Origin: Porphyromonas sp.
GTDB taxonomy: Bacteria > Bacteroidota > Bacteroidia > Bacteroidales > Porphyromonadaceae
Length of the DNA: 64,000 nt
Direction of reading: 5' to 3'
Assembly: GCA_030532365.1 (NCBI GenBank)
Contig: JAUNLH010000002.1
Span: 22,656-86,655, forward strand
Made by a program: the position numbers and the translations under genes. The notes under the pieces were generated by a model, which was given only the letters and a program-made list of their open reading frames with translations, was not told the DNA's origin and did not search any database. This document shows, piece by piece, positions 5,946 through 47,547 of the stretch (position 1 is the first letter of the stretch; each line of letters begins with the position of its first letter).

Positions 5946-6055
5946 ACCTCCAAACTAAGAAAATCTAAGTTCCCAACTTAGGTGTGTCGAAGTTCCCAAC
6001 TTAGTGCAATCGAAGTTGGGAACTTAAGTAGATCGAAGTTGGGAACTCCGATATC
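5946..6055. repeat. Brick array A: leader plus four 23-bp phased palindromic units
   Basis: The units are TCTAAGTTCCCAACTTAGGTGTG / TCGAAGTTCCCAACTTAGTGCAA / TCGAAGTTGGGAACTTAAGTAGA / TCGAAGTTGGGAACTCCGATATC. Cores start at 5967, 5990, 6013 and 6036. The leader ACCTCCAAACTAAGAAAATCTAAGTT starts at 5946. Confidence 0.85.
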
Positions 6056-6081
6056 CTTAAGTGCCATCTGCCGTAAAGTGT

Positions 6082-9183: not shown

Positions 9184-11073
9184 TCAATCCTCCTCTGGCT
9201 GTAGGTTCTCGACAATGAAGTCCTGGCGGTCTGAGGTGTTGCTCCCCATATAAAACTCGAGGAGCTCCTGTACGTTGTCTTCCTTTCGCATAACTACGGG
9301 ATCGATGCGCATGTTCTCTCCGATAAACTCCTTGAACTCATCGGGGCGGATCTCTCCGAGACCTTTGAAGCGAGTGACCGAAACTCCCTCGCCTAGTTTG
9401 GCGATGGCTCGATCTCGCTCAGCCTCATCATAGCAGTAGATCGTCTCCCGGTCTTTCTTGTCTCGCACTCGGAAGAGCGGTGTCTGGAGGATGTATACAT
9501 GGTTTTGCCGGATCAGCTCTGGGAAGAAGCGGAGAAAGAAGGTGATGAGCAGGAGACGTATGTGCATGCCATCTACGTCCGCATCGGTGGCGACGATCAC
9601 CTTGTTGTACCGGAGTCCTTCGATGTCGTCCTCGACATTGAGGGCAGCTTGAAGTAGGTTGAACTCCTCATTCTCGTAGACGACCTCTTTCTTCCGACCG
9701 TAGCAGTTGAGTGGCTTGCCTCTTAGGGAGAAGACCGCTTGATGCTCAGCGTTTCTGCTCTGGGTAATGCTTCCGCTTGCAGATAGACCCTCGGTGATGA
9801 AGATCTGGGTATCCTCCTTGTTTTTAGCTTTAGGATCGTTGTAATGCTGCGTGCAGTCGCGTAGCTTGCGGTTGTGGATGTTTGCCTTCTTGGCTCGCTC
9901 CTTTGCTGCCTTCGAGATCCCTGCGAGCGACTTGCGCTCTCGTTCGTTCTCCTGTATCTTCTGTAGGAGCGCGTCGGCGGTCTCCTCATTCATGTGCAGG
10001 TAGTCATCCAAGCGCTCTTTGAGGAAGTCGCTGACAAACTTCTGGATCGTTGTACCTCCCTCAGCGATTTCACGGGAGCCTAGCTTAGTCTTTGTTTGAC
10101 TCTCAAAGAGTGGATCCTGTATGCGGATGCTGATCGCAGCCGTAATGCCGGAGCGAATGTCATTGTAGTCAAAGTTGCGGTTGTAGAAGTCTCGGATGGT
10201 TCTAGCTACGTGCTCTTTGAACGCTGAGAGGTGAGTGCCGCCATGGATCGTATTCTGTCCGTTGACAAATGAGTAGTACTCCTCGCCGTACTGAGTTGAG
10301 TGGGTAATGGCAACTTCTATGTCTTTCCCCACAAAGTGAATGATGGGGTAAAGTGGCTCGGAGGTCATAGTGTCGTTGAGCAGATCTAGCAGTCCGTCTT
10401 TCGAGAAGAAGCGCTCTCCGTTGAGGTAGAGCTTCAACCCAGGCTGCAGGTAGGCGTACATCCGCATCATCTCCTCTACAAAGTCCTTCTGGTAGCGATA
10501 GTTCTTAAATATCGTGTCATCGGGTGTGAAGGAAACCAGAGTGCCAGTTGGCTCGGATGGGGCATCGAATAGCTCTCCATCCTCTACCAGCTCTCCGCGC
10601 TCAAAGACTACGGTCTTGCCCTTTCCGTCTCTGTACGAAGTTACCTCTGTGCGGGTACTTAGTGCATTGACAGCTTTAAGTCCGACACCATTGAGACCGA
10701 CTACTTTCTTAAACACCTCATTATCGTACTTGGCGCCGGTATTCATCGTCCCTACCGCTTTCACAAGCGATCCTTGCGGGATTCCTCTACCGTGGTCACG
10801 GATCGTTACCTGTCTCTCCTCGCTGATAGTTACCTCTATCGACTTGCCATACCCCATGGTATACTCATCGATAGAGTTGTCTATCACCTCCTTAAGTAGG
10901 ACATAGATGCCGTCGTCCTTGGCAGTGCCATCTCCTAGCTTTCCGATGTACATGCCGGGTCGGAGCCGTATATGCTCCATCGGCTTTAGAGTAGCTACAG
11001 AGTCTTCATTGTACTTCTCTGTAGCTCTCTTCAGGTCTAGTGTGTCGTCTTTCTCCCTCTCGTCTATTGTCAT
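9184..11073 (-). CDS. parE: DNA topoisomerase IV subunit B (type IIA topoisomerase ATPase subunit)
   Basis: 629 aa with a GHKL ATPase N-terminus (EVIDNSIDE, GLNGVGLKAVNALS), Toprim EGLSA and the DADVDGMHI motif. It is shorter than the adjacent bona fide GyrB and lacks the GyrB C-terminal insert. That pattern fits Bacteroidota ParE. Confidence 0.8.
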   Translation of the reverse strand: MTIDEREKDDTLDLKRATEKYNEDSVATLKPMEHIRLRPGMYIGKLGDGTAKDDGIYVLLKEVIDNSIDEYTMGYGKSIEVTISEERQVTIRDHGRGIPQGSLVKAVGTMNTGAKYDNEVFKKVVGLNGVGLKAVNALSTRTEVTSYRDGKGKTVVFERGELVEDGELFDAPSEPTGTLVSFTPDDTIFKNYRYQKDFVEEMMRMYAYLQPGLKLYLNGERFFSKDGLLDLLNDTMTSEPLYPIIHFVGKDIEVAITHSTQYGEEYYSFVNGQNTIHGGTHLSAFKEHVARTIRDFYNRNFDYNDIRSGITAAISIRIQDPLFESQTKTKLGSREIAEGGTTIQKFVSDFLKERLDDYLHMNEETADALLQKIQENERERKSLAGISKAAKERAKKANIHNRKLRDCTQHYNDPKAKNKEDTQIFITEGLSASGSITQSRNAEHQAVFSLRGKPLNCYGRKKEVVYENEEFNLLQAALNVEDDIEGLRYNKVIVATDADVDGMHIRLLLITFFLRFFPELIRQNHVYILQTPLFRVRDKKDRETIYCYDEAERDRAIAKLGEGVSVTRFKGLGEIRPDEFKEFIGENMRIDPVVMRKEDNVQELLEFYMGSNTSDRQDFIVENLQPEED

Positions 11074-12553: not shown

Positions 12554-14557
<2,004 letters not shown>

Positions 14558-14586
14558 TAGATAAGTATCCATAGGATCAAAGACGA

Positions 14587-14626
14587 GCGAGTCGTGCAAG
14601 TAATCACTTGCATGGCTCGCTTTTTT
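14587..14626 (+). terminator. Rho-independent terminator of gyrB
   Basis: GCGAGTCGTGCAAGT-AATC-ACTTGCATGGCTCGC forms a 15-bp stem with two G-U pairs. TTTTTT follows it, 30 nt after the gyrB stop. Confidence 0.8.
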
Positions 14627-14767: not shown

Positions 14768-14871
14768 TGACCTCCGAACTTAAAAAATCTAAGTTCCCAA
14801 CTTCGATCGATCTAAGTTCCGGTCTTAGGCAAATCTAAGTTCCGAACTCCGACGAACCGAAGTTGGGGTCT
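14768..14871. repeat. Brick array B: leader plus four 23-bp phased units
   Basis: The leader is TGACCTCCGAACTTAAAAAATC. The units are TCTAAGTTCCCAACTTCGATCGA / TCTAAGTTCCGGTCTTAGGCAAA / TCTAAGTTCCGAACTCCGACGAA / CCGAAGTTGGGGTCT. Cores start at 14791, 14814, 14837 and 14860. Confidence 0.85.
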
Positions 14872-20842: not shown

Positions 20843-21862
20843 ATGAAACATCCTGACAACTATCAAGACCTTATAGCCCCCATTGATCCGGCTATCATCA
20901 AAGCCGAACTTTCGGAGCAACACCTGCTGCGCAAGACTAATAGAGCGGGCAATGAGCTATACACATTTCGCGCACAGGAGGCGCCCAATACGATGCTCGA
21001 ACTTGGGAGGTTGCGTGAGGAAGCCTTTAGGTATTACGGAGGTGGCACTGGGAAACCTGCTGACATCGATGAGTTTGACCTTGATCCCGATGGGTACTAT
21101 CAGCTGATTGTCTGGGATCCAGAGGAGCACATAATTCTAGGCGGTTATCGCTATATGCTTGGTGGAGATGTAAAGGTAAAGGATGGCAAGACGATGCTCG
21201 CTAGTAGTGAGATCTTTGACTACTCCGACCTCTTCCTCAAGGAGTATCTTCCTAGGAGCATCGAGCTGGGTCGGAGCTTTGTCCGAGTGGACTACCAGCA
21301 GGCTGGGTTGAGACCTAAGTCGATCTTTGCCCTTGACAACCTTTGGGACGGGCTAGGAGCGTTGATCTTGATACACGACCAGTACGAGTATTTCTTTGGC
21401 AAGGTGACGATGTATAAGGACTACAATCGCCAGGCACGCGATCTCATCATCTACTATATGAACACTCACTTTAGGTCGGAGGTCGATCTCATGCATGCTC
21501 TCTATCCGGTTCCCTACGAGACCCCAGTAGAGGAGCTAGCTGAGGTGATCAAAGGAGAGGATGCAAAGGCGGACTACAAAGCTCTCAATAAGGCGGTGCG
21601 CGACCTAGGTGTCAATATCCCTCCTCTAGTCAATGCCTATATCGGGTTGTCCTCCTCTCTTATGGTCTTCGATGTCAGTCTCAATGCGGGATTTTCCAAT
21701 GTAGAGGAGACCGGCATCATGATCCCGATGTTAGAGATCACAGAGGATAAGAAGCGGAGACATATTGAGAGCTTCCTCCGTGATGCGGCAAAGAAGTACC
21801 GACCCAATCTGATTGCCCGTATCCGTAAACGCCTAAGACCCGGGACTGCCTCAGACAAGTGA
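20843..21862 (+). CDS. GNAT-family (hemolysin-like) N-acyltransferase (GlsB/ChoA-like glycine N-acyltransferase)
   Basis: I prefer the ATG at 20843 (MKHPDNYQDLIAPIDP...); the ORF-track start at 20645 lies inside the previous gene. LGRLREEAFRYYGGGTGK..DIDEFD is typical of the ornithine/glycine lipid N-acyltransferase family. Confidence 0.7.
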   Translation: MKHPDNYQDLIAPIDPAIIKAELSEQHLLRKTNRAGNELYTFRAQEAPNTMLELGRLREEAFRYYGGGTGKPADIDEFDLDPDGYYQLIVWDPEEHIILGGYRYMLGGDVKVKDGKTMLASSEIFDYSDLFLKEYLPRSIELGRSFVRVDYQQAGLRPKSIFALDNLWDGLGALILIHDQYEYFFGKVTMYKDYNRQARDLIIYYMNTHFRSEVDLMHALYPVPYETPVEELAEVIKGEDAKADYKALNKAVRDLGVNIPPLVNAYIGLSSSLMVFDVSLNAGFSNVEETGIMIPMLEITEDKKRRHIESFLRDAAKKYRPNLIARIRKRLRPGTASDK

Positions 21863-22453
21863 GGCGAAAAATGTGGTCAGTAGGGGTACGCTCAAGTCGC
21901 AGACAATTCCGTGATATATAGAGGGTACCAAGTACTCTTGTCCTGAGCTCTTTAGGATAAATGGCAGTGGCACCTCCATGGTCGTCGCGCCACCGGCAGC
22001 AATGGGAGCGTATGGCCCAAACCAGCGAGCTAGGGGGTTGCTGAATAGTATGGCCATCAATTCGCGAAAGACATTGGAGAGCAGAGCGATCATCCCTAGC
22101 GTCACTCCAAGCTCCTCAGTCACGATAAGACCTGAGAGCGTGTAGCAGCCCTGCCCTGCTGAAATAGTGAGTGTGGCAAAGAGGGGCTTGACCAAGACTG
22201 CAGCGGCGAGTGCACCGCCGAGTATAGTCCCTATCATTGTGAGGATAGGGAGGAATAGAAGTCGCTTGGGTAGGCTACGGAAGCTCTCAAACATCTTACT
22301 ATCACTTCCGACCGACAGACCTACGCAAAACATGAGCATGTAGAGTAGGTAAAGTGTTATGTTTGACTCAGCTAAGTCGATGGGGAGTAGGTCGAAGCGA
22401 CCAAAGATGATGCCGAGTGCAAATATGCCTGCTAGGAGCAGTGTATCTTTCAT
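21851..22453 (-). CDS. LysO/DUF340-family membrane protein (large subunit-like), copy 2
   Basis: 200 aa, polytopic. Contains WFGPYAPIAAGGATTM and SGQEYLVPSIYHG. By eye it is roughly two-thirds identical to the adjacent 22538..23146 gene. Confidence 0.7.
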   Translation of the reverse strand: MKDTLLLAGIFALGIIFGRFDLLPIDLAESNITLYLLYMLMFCVGLSVGSDSKMFESFRSLPKRLLFLPILTMIGTILGGALAAAVLVKPLFATLTISAGQGCYTLSGLIVTEELGVTLGMIALLSNVFRELMAILFSNPLARWFGPYAPIAAGGATTMEVPLPFILKSSGQEYLVPSIYHGIVCDLSVPLLTTFFASLV

Positions 22454-22537: not shown

Positions 22538-23146
22538 CTAGAGCGTTACCAATGAAGCAAAGAAAGTCACTGAAAATGGGACGCTAAGATCACAGATAAA
22601 ACCGTGATAGATAGAGGGCACTAGGTACTCTTGTCCTGATGCTTTCAAGATAAATGGCAGTGTGACGTCCATCGTCGTTGCACCTCCTGCTGCGATAGGG
22701 GCATAAGGCCCAAACCAGCTAGCGAAGGGGTGACTGAGTATAATTGCCATGAGTTCGCGTATGATATTGGCTAGAAGTGCTATGGTGCCCACGGTTATCC
22801 CCAGCTCCTCCGTCAGGATCACACTCGACAGTGAGTAGTATCCGAGCCCGGCGGAGAGGGCAATCCCTGAGGCTACAGATTGCTTTAAGATCAATGCCGC
22901 TACCGTACCTCCTAGCCAGGATCCTGCAATGGTCAGGAATGGTAGCAGTAAGATCCGTATAGGTAGCTTCCGAAAGCTCTTCAAGGTCTCACTGTCATTG
23001 CCGATAGAGAGACCTACGCAAAACATCAGCGCATAGAGCAGATAGAGCACCAACTGCCCTCCTTGTACATCGAGAGGAAGGTGGTTGAGCCTGCCTAGGA
23101 TGATGCCGACAAGAAAGACGCCGACTAGGAGCAGGTTGTCCCTCAT
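22538..23146 (-). CDS. LysO/DUF340-family membrane protein (large subunit-like), copy 1
   Basis: 202 aa with the same conserved blocks as copy 2. Its start overlaps the stop of the small upstream membrane gene in an ATGA arrangement. Confidence 0.7.
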   Translation of the reverse strand: MRDNLLLVGVFLVGIILGRLNHLPLDVQGGQLVLYLLYALMFCVGLSIGNDSETLKSFRKLPIRILLLPFLTIAGSWLGGTVAALILKQSVASGIALSAGLGYYSLSSVILTEELGITVGTIALLANIIRELMAIILSHPFASWFGPYAPIAAGGATTMDVTLPFILKASGQEYLVPSIYHGFICDLSVPFSVTFFASLVTL

Positions 23147-23570: not shown

Positions 23571-23673
23571 AGACCCCGAACTTAGAAAATCTAAGTTCCG
23601 GTCTTAGATGTATCTAAGTTCCCAACTTAGATGAGTCGAAGTTCCGGTCTTAGATTTTCTAAGTTCAGGGTCT
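23571..23673. mobile_element. Brick array C: complete 103-bp MITE-like element with 25-bp terminal inverted repeats
   Basis: The left end, AGACCCCGAACTTAGAAAATCTAAG at 23571-23595, matches the reverse complement of the right end at 23649-23673 with one mismatch. Five cores are phased 22-23-23-22 nt apart. Confidence 0.8.
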
Positions 23674-44989: not shown

Positions 44990-45067
44990 TAGTGGTAAGA
45001 GATGTGAAATAACCCGATGATAGAGCATTCGACCCTGTCGCTAGAGAACACAAACAAAAGCTACACT

Positions 45068-46384
45068 ATGAGTAAGAAAAGAATCTTTATCTGCCTTTTT
45101 ATCGCTTTAATGGCATGCAGTACACTTTTTGGTCAAACCGGATACACCCCCTCTCCGTGTAATCTGGAGGCTCGAGAGAGATTTGAGGAGAGTCGATTTG
45201 GTATCTTTATCCACTGGGGCTTATACAGTATGTTTGCCCAAGGAGAGTGGTACCTCAATAACAAAATTAACAAAGATGAGTACGCCAAGGCGGCTTCTGC
45301 TTTTTACCCGACACTCTTTGATGCAGAGGAGTGGGTCAGAGCCATTAAGCGGTCAGGTGCTAAGTATGTGACTTTTACCACCAGGCACCATGATGGTTTC
45401 TCGATGTACCACACCGAGACCAGTGACTACAATATCGTGGATGCTACGCCCTTTGGGCGTGATGTGCTCGCTGAACTTGCAGATGCGTGTCGGGAGGAGG
45501 GCCTCAAGCTGCATCTTTATTACTCAATCTTGGATTGGATCCGCCCAGACTATCCTGTAGGTCGGACGGGATTGCATACCGGACGTGTGCCGGCTCCGGA
45601 CTATGACTCCTACTTTGACTTTATGAAAACTCAGATGCACGAGCTTCTGACCGGATATGGTGACATTGATGCGGTTTGGCTCGACGGCTATTGGGATCAC
45701 GATAGTGACTCGATCCCATTTGACTGGCGGATGGAGGAGTTCTATGACTACATCCATGAGTTGCAACCGTGTTGCCTGATTGGTAATAACCATCATATCG
45801 CACCGTTGGAAGGAGAGGACTTTCAGATGTTTGAGCGGGACCTGCCGGGGGAGAATACTGCCGGACTCTCAGGGCAGGAGATAAGCCGGCTCCCACTGGA
45901 GATGTGCCAGACGATGAATGGGATGTGGGGATACAAGATTGCTGACCTTAACTATAAGAGTACTGCTGACTTGATAAAGCTTTTGGTGCGTGCCGCCTCC
46001 AAGGGCAGCAATTTGTTACTTAATATAGGACCGCAGGCCAATGGAGAGTTGCCAGCGCAGGCAATCGAACGATTGAATGGCATAGGAGAGTGGATGGACG
46101 TGTATGGGGAGACGATCTATGGCTCCAAGGCTGGGCTTGTGGAGCAGCAATCTTGGGGTGTCTCCACGACAAAGGGAGATAAGCTCTTTCTCCATGTCTT
46201 GGAGGATGTAGAGCGGATTACCGTTACTTTGCCTCGTAAGCCTATTCGTGTCGTAGATTATATTACAGGTCAACCGATCCCTTGTCGTCAGCTAAATGGA
46301 GGAGTAGTGCAGATGGAGATTCATCGTCCAGCAGGTACGGTAGATTACGTGGTAGAGGTAGAGTTTGCTGCCACCACCGAATAG
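45068..46384 (+). CDS. Alpha-L-fucosidase, glycoside hydrolase family 29
   Basis: I prefer the ATG at 45068, which gives a signal peptide (IFICLFIALMACSTLFGQ). GH29 blocks are present: RFGIFIHWGLYS, AKYVTFTTRHHDGFSMY and VWLDGYW. Confidence 0.9.
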   Translation: MSKKRIFICLFIALMACSTLFGQTGYTPSPCNLEARERFEESRFGIFIHWGLYSMFAQGEWYLNNKINKDEYAKAASAFYPTLFDAEEWVRAIKRSGAKYVTFTTRHHDGFSMYHTETSDYNIVDATPFGRDVLAELADACREEGLKLHLYYSILDWIRPDYPVGRTGLHTGRVPAPDYDSYFDFMKTQMHELLTGYGDIDAVWLDGYWDHDSDSIPFDWRMEEFYDYIHELQPCCLIGNNHHIAPLEGEDFQMFERDLPGENTAGLSGQEISRLPLEMCQTMNGMWGYKIADLNYKSTADLIKLLVRAASKGSNLLLNIGPQANGELPAQAIERLNGIGEWMDVYGETIYGSKAGLVEQQSWGVSTTKGDKLFLHVLEDVERITVTLPRKPIRVVDYITGQPIPCRQLNGGVVQMEIHRPAGTVDYVVEVEFAATTE

Positions 46385-46412
46385 CATTGATCCACTCCCA
46401 GAAGGTTTCGTG

Positions 46413-46756
46413 ATGGTACGACATCCGACCTGCGTCGGAGTCGGTATTTTCATTCATCGGTTTTGTACCAGGGTGGCGCTCAGACTCGTTGCGTCTTCGC
46501 TTATCCTCCCCTAGGCTCTTCGATCCCGCGGAGGGCGGGATCATTATTGCCCCGGCTCCTCGTAGGTGTGCTTATGGTACGTACTCGTCGTCATCCGGGA
46601 TCAATGGCGGATGTTTGGGTGTTCGCTGTAAGTGAACAACCCTGCGGACTCGCAGGGTTGCAGATCTTAGCGAAGGGTAAGAGGCGAAGCCTCGCCGCCC
46701 TGGTATAAGGGTGGCGACCCTCACCCGACTCCGACATAGGTCGGACGTCGCACCAT
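46413..46756. other. Unclassified 344-bp GC-rich, hairpin-dense element bounded by 32-bp inverted hairpin modules (candidate structured ncRNA or non-autonomous mobile element)
   Basis: The left end at 46413-46444, ATGGTACGACATCCGACCTGCGTCGGAGTCGG, matches the reverse complement of 46725-46756, ATGGTGCGACGTCCGACCTATGTCGGAGTCGG. Internal stem-loops lie at 46522-46542, 46592-46613, 46621-46637, 46638-46659 and 46681-46693. A 13-bp long-range helix pairs 46466-46478 with 46693-46705. The two ORF-track ORFs here have junk-like composition. Confidence 0.6.
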
Positions 46757-47547
46757 TACTGTTTAGCCTGCTTTTTCTTGAGTTCGATCAGCTTATTGAG
46801 CTTCTCACTCTCCTTTGCAAGCTTATAACCGAGCTTGTATAGTTTGGGTGCTTGTTTGTGGTCGTAGATGCTGAACTTAGAAAACTTAGGGCTGTCGATG
46901 AGTATATCGCAGGCGTAGTTGTCGTAGATGACATTTTCTTTGCTGATGAGGTTCCAACAGCGGAGCCCGATGTTCTTGATGTTCATGTCGTACTGATCCG
47001 CTATTTTAGAGCCGATATTGACACCGATCAGGATGTCGCAATAGTCTCGAATCGTGGTGACGGGGAAGTTTTTGTACAGCCCTCCATCGACAAAGTAGTG
47101 GTCGTCGATCTTGACTGGGGCAAAGACGATCGGCAGGGTGCAGGATGCCAAGACGGTCAGAGCCGCGGACCCAGACTCAAAGACGCGGGTACGACCGAGA
47201 TCGAGGTCTGTGGCAACGACCTTGACGGGGATACGACTATCCTCGAGGTCTGCATCGCCGAAGAACTCCTTTAATGCCTTTTGTAGAAATGATGATGAGA
47301 CGAGTCCTCCGTCGTTGCGCTTCGTGATGAGTTCGAGCTTCCGCGGATCTACCTGTGAAAAGAAATCGTAGATCTCCTCTGCAGTATGTCCCATGGCATA
47401 GGCGGCAGCAACGATGGAGCCAGCACTTGTGCCCGAGACGATGTCGGGGTGGATGCCATTTTCCTCCAAGTACTTCAATACGCCCACATGGGCAAAGCCC
47501 CTAGCACCACCGCCACCGAGTGCCAAACCAATTTTGCTATACTTCAT
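46756..47547 (-). CDS. Patatin-like phospholipase
   Basis: 263 aa with the oxyanion GGGxRG motif (LGGGGARGFAHVG), the nucleophile GxSxG (GTSAGS) and the catalytic DGG (VDGGLY). Confidence 0.88.
   Translation of the reverse strand: MKYSKIGLALGGGGARGFAHVGVLKYLEENGIHPDIVSGTSAGSIVAAAYAMGHTAEEIYDFFSQVDPRKLELITKRNDGGLVSSSFLQKALKEFFGDADLEDSRIPVKVVATDLDLGRTRVFESGSAALTVLASCTLPIVFAPVKIDDHYFVDGGLYKNFPVTTIRDYCDILIGVNIGSKIADQYDMNIKNIGLRCWNLISKENVIYDNYACDILIDSPKFSKFSIYDHKQAPKLYKLGYKLAKESEKLNKLIELKKKQAKQ

Follow-up and report, generated by a model that had tools for sequence, protein, structure and literature searches.

Palindromic elements between bacterial genes

Among bacterial intergenic elements, MITEs are classically recognized by their terminal inverted repeats, short length, lack of coding capacity and stable fold, and those of the Correia/NEMIS, Nezha, Chunjie and ERIC types, whose two ends fold onto each other, are intergenic, non-coding and shorter than 400 bp (PMC3184786). 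REP and BIME sequences of Enterobacteria and Pseudomonas, and SPRITE of S. pneumoniae, are imperfect palindromes, rich in GC and about 35 nt long, that have a bulged stem and a 5' tail and are arranged in inverted orientation. They lie preferentially between convergent genes, where a role in termination and in the stability of mRNA 3' ends has been proposed (PMC3184786). Bidirectional intrinsic terminators take up the same position and offer GC hairpins on either strand, while GOLLD, ROOL, OLE, raiA and HEARO are encoded in long GC-rich, helix-dense intergenic regions devoid of an ORF.

The element described here is a real, statistically striking, orphan intergenic palindrome of 350 bp, found in a 64-kb stretch of DNA from an uncultured Bacteroidales bacterium, Porphyromonas sp. 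(the window, which denotes the whole stretch that was analysed). As in MITEs, its ends are terminal inverted repeats, it is shorter than 400 bp, non-coding and intergenic, it is predicted to form a very stable hairpin (-170 to -178 kcal/mol) and it overlaps the end of a gene. It differs from MITEs in that no target-site duplication, second copy or partner insertion sequence was found in the window, in its branched interior with a unique centre of about 100 nt, and in being GC-rich relative to the intergenic DNA of the host. With REP, BIME and SPRITE it shares the size and composition of the palindromic module, the 5' tail, the bulged stem and the inverted arrangement. However, REP sequences are present in tens to hundreds of copies, whereas the 35-nt module of the element occurs twice in the 64 kb, both times within the element itself; moreover, its inverted pair is set 280 nt apart instead of being adjacent, and no RAYT-type transposase was seen. 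The likeness to bidirectional terminators includes the position, the GC hairpins on either strand and a U-rich tail on the left module (+ strand), but the element is about ten times larger, contains multiple nested helices and has no U tract for a minus-strand transcript. It has in common with GOLLD, ROOL, OLE, raiA and HEARO the long, GC-rich, helix-dense and ORF-free intergenic region, and is distinguished from them by the lack of any match in Rfam 15, by helices that appear to come from one inverted duplication and by G-U pairs that are symmetric between the strands.

A previous sequence-only reading of this stretch had compared the element to a large structured ncRNA on the one hand and to non-autonomous mobile elements of PATE or REP-pair type on the other. 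The PATE option does not hold, since the end hairpins are mirror images of each other and form true terminal inverted repeats; elements derived from IS200/IS605 have none and carry subterminal hairpins that face the same way on one strand. Read on the + strand, the bulge is 5' in the left-arm hairpin but 3' in that of the right arm. The REP-pair option fits as far as anatomy is concerned, but a second copy, a target-site duplication and a transposase were not found in the 64 kb. The element is best filed among bacterial intergenic foldback or REP/MITE-like elements that carry terminator-like hairpins, as a member of no defined family.

Location and architecture of the element

The element wholly occupies the gap between a fucosidase and a patatin-like phospholipase gene arranged tail to tail (Table 1), and its two halves are inverted copies of one another. 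The GC content of this gap is 57.4%, compared with 29-51% for the other 16 gaps longer than 60 nt, and it is the sole long GC-rich intergenic gap of the window. The patatin gene is the last gene after a V-type ATPase operon, and its stop codon (TTA on the + strand, at 46756-46758) falls within the outermost bases of the right arm. The neighbourhood is of a housekeeping nature, with gyrB and parE, SSB, FtsK, IMPDH, the V-ATPase operon, biotin synthesis and a Sus-like locus. A pair of genes for B subunits of type IIA topoisomerases, both gyrB/parE-like, are separated by about 1.5 kb, at 9184-11073 (- strand) and 12554-14557 (+ strand), and two adjacent paralogues of the LysO exporter family at 21851-22453 and 22538-23146 (both - strand); both pairs are ordinary and are given for context.

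Table 1. Coordinates of the element, its parts and the flanking genes (positions in the window; a dot marks features given without strand)
Feature	Coordinates	Strand	Description
Fucosidase gene (GH29 alpha-L-fucosidase)	45017-46384	+	Pfam PF01120, E = 1.2e-103; flanks the element on its left and converges on it
Left terminal arm (module A-left)	46410-46444	.	Inverted repeat of 35 nt, 86% complementary; repeat finder
T-rich spacer TATTTTCATTCATCGGTT	46445-46462	+	U-rich tail after the A-left hairpin; from sequence and fold
Second nested inverted-repeat arm, left, TTGTACCAGGGTGGCG	46463-46478	.	16 nt, 88%; repeat finder
Third nested inverted-repeat arm, left, CTTATCCTCCCCTAGGCTCT	46500-46519	.	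15/20 against the reverse complement of 46662-46681
Hairpin D-left, GATCCCGC-GGAGG-GCGGGATC	46522-46542	.	Perfect 8-bp stem; fold -16.6 kcal/mol
Non-palindromic centre	46543-46636	.	Two small hairpins, 46592-46613 and 46621-46637; arm-to-arm alignment stops here
Hairpin D-right, CAACCCTGCG-GACT-CGCAGGGTTG	46637-46660	.	Perfect 10-bp stem; inverted repeat, 100%; counterpart of D-left
Third nested inverted-repeat arm, right	46662-46681	.	Partner of 46500-46519
Small hairpin GAGGC-GAA-GCCTC	46681-46693	.	From sequence; present in folds
Second nested inverted-repeat arm, right	46693-46708	.	Partner of 46463-46478
Right terminal arm (module A-right)	46725-46759	.	Inverted repeat of 35 nt; mirror image of A-left
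Patatin-like phospholipase gene	46756-47547	-	Pfam PF01734, E = 8.9e-41; right flank

The sequence-only reading had bounded the element by two inverted modules of 32 nt (46413-46444 and 46725-46756) identical at 28 of 32 positions, and had listed a series of helices between them. Both the count and each of the helices, at the coordinates given for them, were confirmed against the sequence. The inverted ends are present, but the homology does not stop at 32 nt: it reaches about 120 nt per arm, with a local score of 33 versus 9.9 +/- 1.6 in shuffles. The element as a whole forms a long, imperfect palindrome (foldback), larger and more symmetric than the earlier reading suggested, and its centre, of about 100 nt, is unique. 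Identity between the arms decays inward: it is 86% over the terminal 35 nt, 88% over the conserved block that follows, and about 68% further in (21 of 31 positions, from the third block into the D hairpins). As a direct repeat, the further partial copy suspected at 46556-46581 does not reach significance, and an organization in two tandem units was rejected, as direct similarity is not significant either.

At the tips, the repeat finder extends the 32-nt modules to arms of 35 nt, separated by 280 nt, which contain exact common blocks of 8 nt and 11 nt. Each of the two modules has a bulged 10-bp hairpin; that of A-left is a GC hairpin at 46419-46443 (CGAC-A-TCCGAC / CTGC / GTCGGA-GTCG), with a local fold of -19 kcal/mol on the + strand. 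In the second helix all 16 positions pair on the + strand, two of them as G-U, and the arms of the third are paired in the + strand minimum-energy fold. D-right reaches -20.2 kcal/mol on the - strand (z = -4.9).

Fold strength and strand symmetry

The minimum free energy of the whole element is -177.6 kcal/mol on the + strand (z = -8.45) and -169.5 kcal/mol on the - strand (z = -9.48), with z-scores alike on the two strands, and its folding was matched by none of 100 shuffles. When all 350-nt segments of the 64 kb were regressed on GC content, none ranked ahead of the element on either strand (residual z = -4.06 and -3.93). The terminal arms are not the only source of this stability: the interior without them remains structured, with z = -3.65 on the + strand and -4.78 on the - strand, and the 214-nt core alone is modestly structured (z = -1.8 and -3.4, respectively).

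The next most structured regions of the window are a family of repeated intergenic palindromes in the gaps 5956-6062, 14796-14867 and 23571-23673. They consist of units like TCTAAGTTCC(C/G)(A/G)RCTT and TCGAAGTTGGGAACTT, in which the arms measure 29-50 nt, show 71-80% complementarity and stand 3-10 nt apart. They look like the REP/BIME equivalent of this genome, and they are unrelated in sequence to the element.

The differences between the arms bear on which strand, if any, the structure serves. Counted by hand, 10 of the 12 differences in the three long-range helices are transitions, and the mismatches that these create become G-U pairs six times on the + strand and four times on the - strand, so that G-U pairs show no strand preference. 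The sequence-only reading had proposed that the two transitions between the 32-nt modules would be G-U only on the minus strand; minus-only pairs do exist, but there are three of them, not two, together with one plus-only pair. In the local hairpins, 49 of 50 pairs are Watson-Crick by our own count, which is what either DNA palindromes or structures required on both strands would lead one to expect. Along the 35-nt arms, all five differences fall in the tail, bulge or loop and none among the 20 local stem positions (hypergeometric p = 0.009, calculated by hand and post hoc). Judging from this pattern of substitutions, the local hairpins look more constrained than the pairing between the arms and appear to be the maintained part of the element. 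Template-switch mutation in quasi-palindromes can itself make perfect hairpins in the absence of selection. None of the hairpin loops of the element is a GNRA or UNCG tetraloop.

Searches for RNA, coding, promoter and mobility signatures

At gathering thresholds no Rfam 15 family was matched in the whole window. A search of 46300-46850 relaxed to E <= 10 gave a single match, a 16-bit hit to CRISPR-DR45, which lies outside the element and is due to chance. The element thus matches no known RNA class, in agreement with the sequence-only reading, which had recognized none. ARAGORN found no tRNA or tmRNA, and tmRNA, RNase P and 6S RNA were rejected as candidates given the lack of Rfam or ARAGORN signals. 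As for promoters, the Bacteroidetes -7 motif TAnnTTTG is absent from 46100-47100 on either strand and no sigma-70-like site is present inside the element.

The view that the gap holds no credible ORF was borne out: peptide pieces from the six-frame translation gave nothing at E <= 10 against an index of 5.8 billion proteins. A 105-aa open frame compared with 1.84 billion representatives had only a chance match, to a tandem-repeat protein. Logan calls a 93-aa ORF at 46263-46544 (- strand), which takes in the fucosidase 3' end as well as the left third of the element; since the element-derived part of it, about 55 of the 93 aa, has no homologue in the six-frame query, this call is almost certainly spurious. 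A pseudogene remnant was rejected because protein similarity is absent in every frame, and so was a small protein or type I toxin-antitoxin mRNA with a hok-like fold-back, as the six-frame translation contains no ORF that has a hydrophobic run of transmembrane length.

With regard to mobility, the ORFs of 150 aa or more in the window include no transposase, integrase, recombinase or reverse transcriptase. BLAST, a pattern search and a covariance model revealed no second copy or fragment of the element in the 64 kb. A target-site duplication is lacking, since all that the flanks (AAGGTTTC and TGTTTAGC) have in common is a non-adjacent GTTT. An integron attC site and a rolling-circle single-strand origin were also considered and rejected, the resemblance being limited to trivial motifs without supporting gene context. 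An assembly foldback artefact was dismissed because the arms are imperfect, whereas chimeras yield perfect repeats.

The locus in related genomes

When patatin, V-ATPase subunit K and fucosidase were looked up as exact matches, the flanking proteins turned up on one other contig, which belongs to the same strain and shows 100% identity over 7167 nt; the source organism is barely sampled, essentially once. The k=31 de Bruijn assembly of Logan passes straight through the element and continues for 3 kb or more to either side. Given the way Logan contigs are constructed, an unbroken k=31 contig speaks against further copies of near identity in that sample.

Neither flanking gene has the element beside it in its nearest relatives. 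On the patatin side, the closest homologue (63% identity) conserves the V-ATPase-patatin order, and its stop is followed by a plain GC hairpin and by a downstream tail unrelated to the element. The C-terminal tail of the patatin studied here departs from that of this relative after residue 254. The contigs of the relative (8769-8824 of L024, SRR11913457, and 1282-1339 of L025, SRR11913454) stop 56-58 nt past the patatin stop, their ends reading ...CAATGATTGATCAATCTTT(CA), and a repeat or strain-variable segment may start there. Scanning genome contigs for patatin returned betaproteobacterial genes 33-45% identical and two short partial matches at 72-80%. On the fucosidase side, the closest homologues (73-78% identity) have a cutC or aldehyde dehydrogenase gene downstream, without the element. 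The element thus sits at a gene-order break in both directions. In L040 (5050-5434; also in L041 and L042), the gap between the 78%-identical fucosidase and a convergent aldehyde dehydrogenase gene measures 385 nt; it is AT-rich, has TTCTTCCGAAGTATC-like units repeated in direct orientation and, towards its end, a GC hairpin, and is similar to the element in size and unrelated to it in sequence.

Wider searches gave a similar picture. Plasmid and phage collections gave no homologue by BLAST in distant mode, and pattern scans of viral contigs returned nothing beyond short matches at chance level. A metagenome scan with the arm consensus TCCGACCTNNGTCGGAGTCGG produced 11 loci, all of them bare 21-mers with the exception of a 31-nt match in L034 (JGI contig Ga0155041_114, 4266-4298). 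This match, TCCGACCTRTGTCGGAGTCGGGTRAGGGTCG, agrees at 29 of 31 positions with minus-strand sequence from the right arm and the 10 nt that follow the arm. It comes from an unrelated organism, where two tRNA genes lie directly downstream of it and the neighbouring gene is pilin-like. The extension past the searched 21-mer matches at 9 of 10 positions, with a chance of roughly 1e-3, and nothing else aligns. A covariance model built from the two arms and run over the window and 22 loci detected no further copy.

A proposed shared 3' end for two convergent genes

We tentatively favour, at somewhat short of even confidence, the view that the element is a lineage-specific foldback palindrome with MITE- or BIME-like anatomy that acts in cis as a 3'-end structure for both convergent genes. 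Its anatomy, its uniqueness, its strand symmetry and the absence of coding, promoter and mobility signatures are observed; from there we infer both an origin and a terminating or stabilizing role. In such a scenario the element would have arisen by insertion of an inverted repeat, or by inverted duplication, where the fucosidase gene and the V-ATPase-patatin operon met tail to tail. On the + strand, the A-left hairpin followed by UAUUUUCAUU would work as an intrinsic terminator about 35 nt past the stop codon of fucosidase. As for patatin, its transcript has the stop codon in the right arm and, on the - strand, would then enter a series of perfect GC hairpins, including D-right (46637-60), trailed by UUCACUU, and the full transcript could close nested stems of 35, 16 and about 20 bp. 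The structure on the patatin side may thereby keep transcription from running on into fucosidase antisense and shield the 3' end.

The fact that the element spans the entire gap between the two convergent stop codons supports a shared 3' end. The left module on the + strand, in which the hairpin 46419-46443 is followed by GTATTTTCATTC (the U-rich run being also given as GUAUUUUCAUUC), is terminator-like by eye. The consensus terminator scan does not report this module, probably because its stem carries a bulge; long-stem terminators with a U tract do exist elsewhere in the genome, for instance at 14585-14622. Several considerations weigh against a shared 3' end. On the - strand the hairpin of A-right is followed by GGUGAGGG, without a U tract, so that a canonical terminator fails to explain the end of the patatin transcript; a length of 350 nt far exceeds what termination needs; the consensus scan gives no terminator anywhere in the element; perfect hairpins may come from template-switch mutation; and long GC-rich intergenic regions are also a classic signature of structured-RNA genes.

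The latter point leads to the alternative of a structured RNA, about 350 nt long, that would be new and confined to this lineage, either a gene or a 3'-UTR domain, closed by a long stem between its 5' and 3' ends. It would be made at the 3' end of one of two units, the V-ATPase-patatin operon or the fucosidase gene, and have its helices kept by selection on RNA structure. The most stable fold of the window, the only long GC-rich intergenic region, at least four helices each improbable by chance, an interior that remains structured without the terminal arms, and perfect hairpins that persist at equivalent arm positions despite about 40% divergence would all suit such an RNA. Nonetheless, we consider it quite improbable: no Rfam match appears even at E <= 10, the Bacteroidetes promoter motif was not found nearby and no homologue turned up in anything searched, while the element is missing at the syntenic site of the nearest relative. 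Furthermore, its helices appear to stem from a single long inverted duplication, with G-U pairs devoid of strand bias and no GNRA or UNCG tetraloop. A near-perfect 35-bp duplex is unusual in functional bacterial RNAs and usual in repeat transcripts. Another reading, which we regard as unlikely, is that of a decayed or low-copy foldback element of MITE type that was inserted at the 3' end of patatin, supplied its stop codon and is now idle. The 35-bp terminal inverted repeats, the length below 400 bp, the lack of coding capacity and the long stable RNA or DNA fold are those of a MITE, and identity that peaks at the tips and falls inward is what transposase-binding ends would leave. The location at a gene-order break on both sides with respect to the nearest relatives, the patatin stop inside the right arm together with a C-terminal tail that diverges after residue 254, and a GC content atypical of the intergenic DNA of this genome point in the same direction. 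Against it, the flanks carry no target-site duplication beyond the non-adjacent GTTT, there is no transposase within the window, and neither a second copy nor a fragment was found in the 64 kb, nor a copy in the viral, metagenome, plasmid and phage collections; the k=31 assembly running through the element likewise argues against near-identical copies in that sample. In addition, excising the element with one GTTT would deprive patatin of a nearby stop codon.

Genomes of Bacteroidales contain many invertible segments of a few hundred bp flanked by inverted repeats, and the 35-bp repeats could in principle be crossover sites at which a recombinase flips the 280-bp interior. The exact blocks of 8 nt and 11 nt common to the arms would be in keeping with an inverton. 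We judge this very improbable, because the interior has no TAnnTTTG promoter to switch, the position is 3' of both neighbouring genes, no recombinase gene is present in the 64 kb and about 120 nt of inverted homology exceed the needs of a crossover site; the sole other assembly, which is of the same strain, shows the same orientation.

The consequences differ among these readings. If the element is a shared 3' end, it adds another bacterial intergenic palindrome that ends convergent transcripts and brings in no new principle. A discrete stable RNA would amount to a new large ncRNA class in Bacteroidales, and a family of such foldbacks at gene-order breaks to a new MITE family in a poorly sampled lineage. 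For annotation, the element is of immediate use in that the spurious 93-aa Logan ORF lies across it.
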